A stretch of 282 bases of DNA from a phage. Both the position numbers and the translations under genes were made by a program. The stretch is taken from the sequence record X15720.1; one strand, written 5' to 3'. The notes under the pieces are model-generated. The model was not told the origin of the DNA and made no database searches. It saw only the letters and a program-made list of their open reading frames with translations. Shown one piece after another: positions 1-282 of the stretch (within the stretch, counting starts at the first letter, position 1; the number at the start of each line of letters is the position of its first letter).

Positions 1-203
1 CAATTGAAATGTCTGTTGGTTCTGGTGGTGTTTGTTCTGCTCGCGATTGTGCTACTGTTGATATTCATCCTCGTACTTCTGGTAATAATGTTTTTGTTGG
101 TGTGATTTGTTCTAGCGCTAAATGGACCTCCGGTCGTGTGATTGGTACCATCGCTACGACTCAGGTTATTCATGAATACCAAGTCCTTCAGCCGCTTAAA
201 TAA
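1..203 (+). CDS. G: Major spike protein G of a phiX174-like microvirus (Bullavirinae), C-terminal ~66 codons; 5'-partial, continuing upstream of the window
   Basis: The frame is open from the window edge (first complete codon at 3-5: att gaa atg...) to TAA at 201-203, so ATG 9-11 is probably internal. The translation [20 protein letters not shown] (42-101) resembles the phiX174 G block [20 protein letters not shown] as I recall it, with about 13 of 20 identical. The ending QVI...LQPLK-stop (186-203) matches the phiX174 G terminus (ctc cag cca ctt aag tga there; ctt cag ccg ctt aaa taa here). The middle (102-185) is divergent, so this is a homolog, not phiX174 itself. Codon usage is strongly T-ending (Gly 7/7 GGT, Cys 3/3 TGT, Val mostly GTT), typical of the microvirus viral strand. 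The comparison is from memory, not a database search. Confidence 0.82.
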
Positions 204-282
204 AAGGCTGCCGCACTCCCGGTTAGATGCCTGCCCAGTGTAGGGCAGCCGATAAACTAGGAACGTGGAAGGCGTTAGCCGC
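204..282 (+). other. Noncoding region between gene G and the next gene (probably G-H intergenic); candidate complementary-strand origin region
   Basis: No credible start codon with a ribosome-binding site in 79 nt after the G stop, whereas in phiX174 gene H starts about 11 nt after the G stop. GC content is about 60% by my count (48/79), against a T-rich coding region. It contains the stem-loop and two CTG trinucleotides (208-210, 231-233). The origin assignment is inference. Confidence 0.3.
229..250 (+). other. GC-rich stem-loop in the intergenic region downstream of gene G; candidate origin-associated or weak terminator hairpin
   Basis: Inverted repeat: ctgccc (231-236) pairs with gggcag (243-248) around a 6-nt loop agtgta (237-242), plus an outer g229-c250 pair after a c230/c249 mismatch. 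No T-run follows (251-260 is gataaactag), so it is not a canonical rho-independent terminator. Confidence 0.5.

Follow-up and report, generated by a model that had tools for sequence, protein, structure and literature searches.

Alpha3 is a coliphage related to phiX174 and G4. In phiX174, synthesis of the complementary strand starts where the PriA/n' primosome assembles within the F-G spacer, and at the minus-strand origin of M13/fd RNA polymerase holoenzyme makes the primer in place of DnaG. For St-1, phiK and alpha3, Sims, Capon and Dressler reportedly placed the origin between genes G and H in 1979, and the same study is said to have observed a unique DnaG primer on alpha3, St-1 and phiK with SSB alone. 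The alpha3 G-H origin has been known since that year, and its G4 homologue is the standard model for DnaG priming. On G4 DNA, SSB and DnaG suffice for priming, which starts at the T of a CTG located 3' of three stem-loops (PMC6783573). The secondary structure phases SSB in such a way that two SSB-free regions of ~30 nt are left, and two primases are bound there at a suitable distance from each other (PMC6783573). Primers of at most 28 nt result, which Pol III then extends (PMC6783573). The G4oric primer was mapped by Bouche, Rowen and Kornberg in 1978, and the SSB/primase complex was the subject of work by Sun and Godson in 1993/1998 (PMC6783573). A 2026 review, citing Sims 1979 (J Biol Chem 254:12615) for the origins, describes hairpin I of St-1/alpha3 with its GCGTTAGC motif (PMC13037366). 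Mini-hairpin DNA of the GCGNNAGC type is unusually thermostable, and such a structure has been proposed to form in hairpin I of these two phages when SSB frays the stem (PMC13037366).

The DNA under study here, a stretch of 282 nt that we refer to as the window, derives from coliphage alpha3. A megablast search of the phage collection matched it to NC_001330 4757-5058 and also to X60322, DQ085810 and M25640. In a four-way alignment with three alpha3 records the aligned bases are 100% identical to alpha3, and the sole exception is a clean gap of 20 nt. The window shares ~94% identity with St-1 and 93% with phiK. Alpha3-like contigs are also present in IMG/VR. Since the genes read on the plus strand, this strand is the viral, packaged strand. 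The window divides into two parts:

1-203, plus strand: terminal portion of the major spike protein gene G, with 66 codons read in frame 3 and then the stop TAA at 201-203; identical to alpha3 G (NC_001330 CDS 4396-4959).
204-282, plus strand: first part of the G-H intergenic region and, as judged from alignments and from the rep_origin/primer annotation of G4, probably the upstream portion of oric, the complementary-strand origin that alpha3 carries on its viral strand.

Because the reading frame of gene G stops at the TAA codon, the second part is noncoding. Its G+C content is 61%, as opposed to 42% in the gene G part. The original prediction, made from the letters of the window, had called attention to at least 79 nt of GC-rich noncoding sequence after G and to the short G-H junction of phiX174. 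Both statements are correct, the phiX174 gap being 8 nt. The intergenic part of the window carries the internal 20-nt deletion, and on its 3' side it is ended by the end of the window; the complete G-H intergenic region of alpha3 measures 135 nt (L001 1404-1538; NC_001330 4960-5094). The ribosome-binding site of gene H, AAGGAG, is located 23-28 nt past the window end, and the H ATG follows 37 nt past it. A gene H start just beyond the window had been named beforehand as evidence against an origin. This start does exist, but it does not refute the origin because the origin and the H start sit side by side.

The gene G part contains an 11-nt inverted repeat (TTGATATTCAT at 58-68 and ATGAATACCAA at 172-182; 91% complementary, 103 nt apart) and, at 14-113, T-rich direct repeats that arise from GGT/GTT/TCT codon usage. 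These repeats are probably due to chance or composition. When the window was compared with Rfam at a permissive E-value, no family was identified and one chance miRNA match turned up inside gene G. The 66-residue C-terminal fragment of alpha3 protein G retrieved no word-sharing candidate from a collection of 5.8 billion proteins, probably because the index is ill suited to short queries.

Homology to G4 makes it very probable that 204-282 represents the upstream part of the alpha3 complementary-strand (minus-strand) origin, that is, a priming signal of the G4 type carried by the packaged viral strand. The alpha3 G-H spacer shares 81% identity (E 8e-23) with the F-G spacer of three G4-group phages, ID52, NC6 and vB_1081, and 91-100% identity with the G-H spacers of all alpha3-group phages. 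The window itself matches G4 in 58 of 81 aligned columns (72% identity; full alpha3 versus G4: 74%). In the F-G spacer of the G4 RefSeq record, an "RNA primer of replication" is annotated at 3970-3997 and an "origin of compl. strand synthesis" at 3998. What is annotated as the origin is the G in the CTG within CCCTACTGCAAAGCC, and the primer is the complement of GGACGGCGAAAGCCGCCGTCC (hairpin I) plus flanks. The alpha3 sequence aligned to the G4 start region reads CCCTCCTGCTAAGCC, and the alpha3 counterpart of the G4 primer template and start is, according to the alignment, GGAAGGCGTTAGCCGCCTTCC followed by CTCCTGCTAAGCC. We assign the region to the alpha3 complementary-strand origin because it aligns to the annotated primer and origin of G4. 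The original prediction had proposed that phages of the alpha3/St-1/phiK group have a DnaG-type origin in their G-H junction and had suggested alignment to alpha3, St-1, phiK and G4 as a check. The identity with alpha3 and the homology to the annotated G4 origin bear this proposal out. An origin in the F-G spacer instead, which had been raised as the opposing case, can be set aside since this spacer is only 33 nt long in alpha3.

With the G4-type origins of the Bullavirinae the region shares a noncoding position on the viral (+) strand and homology to an origin with a mapped primer, that of G4. In terms of descent, this is the alpha3 origin; the deleted allele is unproven as a functional member of this family. 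It would be unsafe to regard the window by itself as a working origin because the start site, five of the eight pairs of hairpin I and a conserved block of 20 nt are absent from it. The identification alone is of little importance, as the element has long been in the literature.

The start site and the adjacent hairpin are placed as follows:

L001 1511-1513 of alpha3 (NC_001330 5067-5069), 9-11 nt past window position 282: start CTG, homologous by alignment to that of G4.
267-282, plus strand: hairpin I, incomplete, with the 5' arm GGAAGGCG at 267-274, the loop TTAGC at 275-279 and, at 280-282, the 3' arm as far as its third nt.

The window holds stem III, a spacer and about two-thirds of hairpin I; the start site is outside. 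Three of the eight stem pairs of hairpin I are kept, and the other 5 nt of its 3' arm lie beyond the window end. In alpha3 and 21 relatives this hairpin is complete, with 8 pairs that are 100% paired. One of these pairs shows a compensatory change, with A-T in alpha3-group phages and C-G in those of the G4 group. The folding z-score is -4.0 for the full alpha3 hairpin I and -4.7 for the G4 origin. A "mini-hairpin" motif, GCGTTAGC at 272-279 within hairpin I, matches the thermostable type introduced above. The start CTG, located 3' of hairpin I, is invariant in 21 of 21 relatives.

Upstream of hairpin I, two alternative structures can be drawn:

206-212, plus strand: 5' arm GGCTGCC of a long-range stem equivalent to G4 stem-loop III, identified by compensatory changes; pair probability ~0.89.
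244-250, plus strand: 3' arm GGCAGCC of the same stem, in which CC at 249-250 comes from beyond the deletion junction and replaces the A-bulge and CC of the wild type.
231-248, plus strand: local hairpin CTGCCC-AGTGTA-GGGCAG of 6 bp; dG -6.0 and z -2.4 when folded alone.

The local hairpin and stem III compete for the same 3' arm. To compare them, we used a set of 21 natural origins, 17 from the alpha3 group (three of which are IMG/VR contigs) and four from the G4 group. Alignment pair 16-54 of stem III is CG in 16 origins and TA in five, and pair 17-53 is GC in 19 and AT in two; the combinations are never mixed. Since these variants occur among sequences that differ in the type of their H-proximal spacer, they suggest more than one event. 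In the local hairpin, by comparison, the changes across relatives are one-sided (T-A to T.G and G-C to G.T). The compensatory changes therefore support the long-range stem 206-212/244-250 rather than the local hairpin at 231-248, and the equivalent of G4 stem-loop III is present in the window. Across the 21 natural origins the pattern of substitution shows hairpin I and long-range stem III to be the structures under selection.

Thermodynamic predictions are less uniform. For the allele in the window the predicted fold contains stem III with p~0.89 and the local hairpin with p~0.10, whereas for naked wild-type alpha3 DNA the local hairpin is predicted with p~0.93. With DNA parameters the long-range stem reaches p 0.99 in the G4 group and p 0.0-0.94 in the alpha3 group, which is thus predicted to be bistable. 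RNAalifold, which tolerates G.U pairs, favours the local hairpin over the long-range stem. Because the prediction for naked wild-type alpha3 favours the local hairpin, the structure of stem III under SSB is uncertain for this phage. The stable hairpin that the original prediction had seen in this region does exist as the 231-248 structure folded alone, but it is a minor species in the predicted fold of the window and its changes are one-sided. Folding 204-282 as single-stranded DNA, which had been proposed as a further check, speaks against unusual stability of the whole region: the value of -12.5 kcal/mol compares with -11.7 +/- 2.2 kcal/mol for dinucleotide shuffles (z -0.36), and 69 of 200 shuffles fold as well.

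The motif CTGCC occurs twice (208-212 and 231-235), and either copy can pair with the same GGCAG (window 206-212, 231-236 and 243-250; A5 columns 16-54 and 38-55). RNAalifold also drew a closing helix GGC/GCC between window 206-208 and L001 1518-1520 (A5 columns 13-15 and 125-127), which would place the 5' flank of stem III beside AAGCC just 3' of the start CTG. All six columns of this helix are invariant, so that it lies outside the reach of covariation.

Between stem III and hairpin I the two groups of phages diverge:

249-266, plus strand: spacer between two homology blocks, 41% identical between alpha3 and G4, at the position of the 3' half of G4 stem-loop II.

An equivalent of G4 stem-loop II was sought in the alpha3 group. 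The G4 register is only 44% paired across the family, and RNAalifold gave only a 3-bp helix. The palindrome CCGTACGG was considered as a substitute and rejected, as it is not conserved and column 64 varies (G, A, T) or is absent. On this comparison, stem-loop II of G4 is not a feature of the family, and the three stem-loop model is not literally transferable to alpha3. In the alpha3 group a conserved GGAG (L001 1461-1464, within the deleted block) is complementary to CTCC (L001 1508-1511) immediately before the start T; G4, where the corresponding sequence is CTAC, lacks this complementarity. This 4-bp pairing is a possible substitute for stem-loop II in the alpha3 group.

On the strength of the homology to G4, we infer that wild-type alpha3 uses the same mechanism of priming. 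After entry, the single-stranded alpha3 DNA would be coated by host SSB. Hairpin I and stem III would resist and phase SSB so that their flanks remain SSB-free, and two DnaG primases would bind to these flanks. The primer would start opposite the T of the 5'-CTG-3' just 3' of hairpin I, and its synthesis, to a length of up to ~28 nt, would proceed leftward across hairpin I before Pol III holoenzyme takes over. Such an alpha3 primer would begin with AGGAGGGAAGGCGG..., complementary to the viral strand as read towards the left from T1512 of L001, and it would copy hairpin I, from which its distal part may thus be templated.

The feature that sets the window apart from its relatives is the deletion:

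248-249, no strand assigned: deletion junction, at which the 20 nt ACCGAGCCGTACGGAGATAC (NC_001330 5005-5024) are absent.

The junction reads GGGCAG/CCGATAAAC, and there is no microhomology at the deletion ends. Slippage between two CCGA repeats was considered and rejected, as it would delete 19 nt and leave GGGCAGACCGATAAA, which is not in the window. The missing 20 nt correspond to alignment columns 56-75, where alpha3 and G4 agree at 18 of 19 positions and the mean column conservation is 0.96. Between the alpha3 and G4 groups this is the best conserved block of the origin, the overall identity of alpha3 and G4 being 74%. Its G4 equivalent lies at about 3936-3954. The motif GACCGNGCC(N)TACGGAGATAC, which lies between stem III and the spacer, is accordingly absent from the window. 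In G4 the block supplies the 5' arm of stem-loop II. The 21 natural origins show that the block has been kept as sequence, not as a helix.

The deletion also alters the structures around it. The A bulge and the two C with which wild-type stem III closes are lost, and the CC after the junction stands in for them. As a result, stem III of the deleted allele is a perfect 7-bp stem (GGCTGCC/GGCAGCC), and the predicted equilibrium flips to the long-range stem. Stem III and hairpin I are 35 nt apart in the wild type and 16 nt apart here. A direct repeat (CAGCCGCTTAAATA at 189-202 and CAGCCGATAAACTA at 246-259, 79% identical) is exclusive to this allele because its second copy crosses the deletion junction; it is probably due to chance. 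Since a strictly conserved and apparently single-stranded block is lost and the spacing between stem III and hairpin I is reduced, the deleted allele would be expected to prime poorly or not at all. Mutagenesis of G4 by Sakai, Hiasa, Komano and Godson, and by Lambert and colleagues, reportedly indicated that sequences upstream of hairpin I are needed.

How, then, did the gap arise? We consider it an evenly balanced possibility that it is an error of the record or its assembly, an engineered construct or a sequence edit, and that the real locus is the ordinary wild-type origin of alpha3. This explanation opposes only the view of the deletion as biology and leaves the identification of the origin untouched. 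The block is present in 24 of 24 relatives, namely 18 natural ones from the phage collection and six alpha3-like IMG/VR contigs, none of which carries the deleted allele, and also in all three alpha3 records. Exact scans of viral, metagenome and genome contig collections gave no match to the junction sequence, and megablast did not find the deleted allele in E. coli genomes and plasmids. The complete identity of the remainder of the window to alpha3 points in the same direction, as does the form of the gap, which is exactly 20 nt long, lacks microhomology and has its limits at the end of the stem III core and at the end of the conserved block. On the other hand, the sequence itself shows no sign of an artefact, spontaneous deletions without microhomology do occur, and the junction recreates a perfect 7-bp stem III, as a viable mutant might need. 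That the window represents a real, replicating alpha3 derivative, which has dispensed with the near-invariant 20-nt block and kept a perfect stem III, seems unlikely to us. If it were true, the block would be dispensable and recognition would depend on hairpin geometry alone, or the phage would survive by way of a back-up priming route. A real deleted allele would therefore provide a ready-made test of what primase and SSB read.

A different reading concerns the G-H spacer as a whole, which might exert its main effect in RNA, by terminating transcription or by forming a hairpin between G and H that stabilises mRNA, rather than serve as an origin. Its location between two genes of a polycistronic transcript and its G+C-rich hairpins would fit such a role. 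However, neither strand of alpha3 L001 1250-1650 contains a site resembling an intrinsic terminator (a stem followed by a T run), and hairpin I is directly followed by CCTCCTGC, without a T run. Moreover, the G4 group has the same element between F and G. Since the element sits at different junctions in the G4 and alpha3 groups, its conservation is independent of the flanking genes. The G4 primer has been mapped to this element, and the Rfam scan offered no family for it. We regard a primarily RNA-level function as very improbable on these grounds; a secondary role of this kind is conceivable beside that of an origin. A promoter reading was also considered and rejected, as no consensus sites were found around the alpha3 spacer.

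The start of primer synthesis proposed in the original prediction, at CTG 208-210 or CTG 231-233 beside the 231-248 hairpin, is scarcely credible: both triplets exist in or next to hairpin-forming sequence, and CTG is the preferred start triplet of DnaG (PMC6783573), but the start CTG of G4 aligns to the triplet past the window end, position 208-210 is CCG in most relatives (St-1, phiK, G4 and others), both triplets are inside stem-forming arms, and the 11 CTG on the two strands of the window are at chance level (8.6 +/- 2.2 expected).

An origin in the G-H spacer, with its start past the window end, can be compared with the known systems. The minus-strand origin of M13/fd is alike in being a hairpin-structured signal on single-stranded DNA that escapes SSB and at which a host enzyme makes one primer. 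It is unlike the alpha3 origin in that this enzyme is RNA polymerase holoenzyme, and the two share no sequence similarity. PhiX174 has in common with alpha3 that the complementary strand of a microvirus is primed on SSB-coated viral single-stranded DNA. In phiX174, however, this is the task of a multi-protein primosome (PriA, DnaB, DnaC) as opposed to DnaG and SSB alone, and no phiX-group record in the phage collection matched the alpha3 spacer. The origins of alpha3, St-1 and phiK are the same locus as the one described here and share with it the G-H position, stem III and a hairpin I that bears the loop motif GCGTTAGC; the window differs from them in lacking the 20-nt block, the start CTG and the H-proximal part. 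The G4 origin differs in its position, which is between F and G in G4 and between G and H in alpha3, and in its predicted structure, as G4 DNA forms three clean hairpins (z -4.7) and stem III of the alpha3 group is bistable with the local hairpin. It resembles the alpha3 origin in its two conserved blocks, in hairpin I, in the long-range stem III and in the CTG 3' of hairpin I, and presumably also in the phasing of SSB and in priming by DnaG alone.
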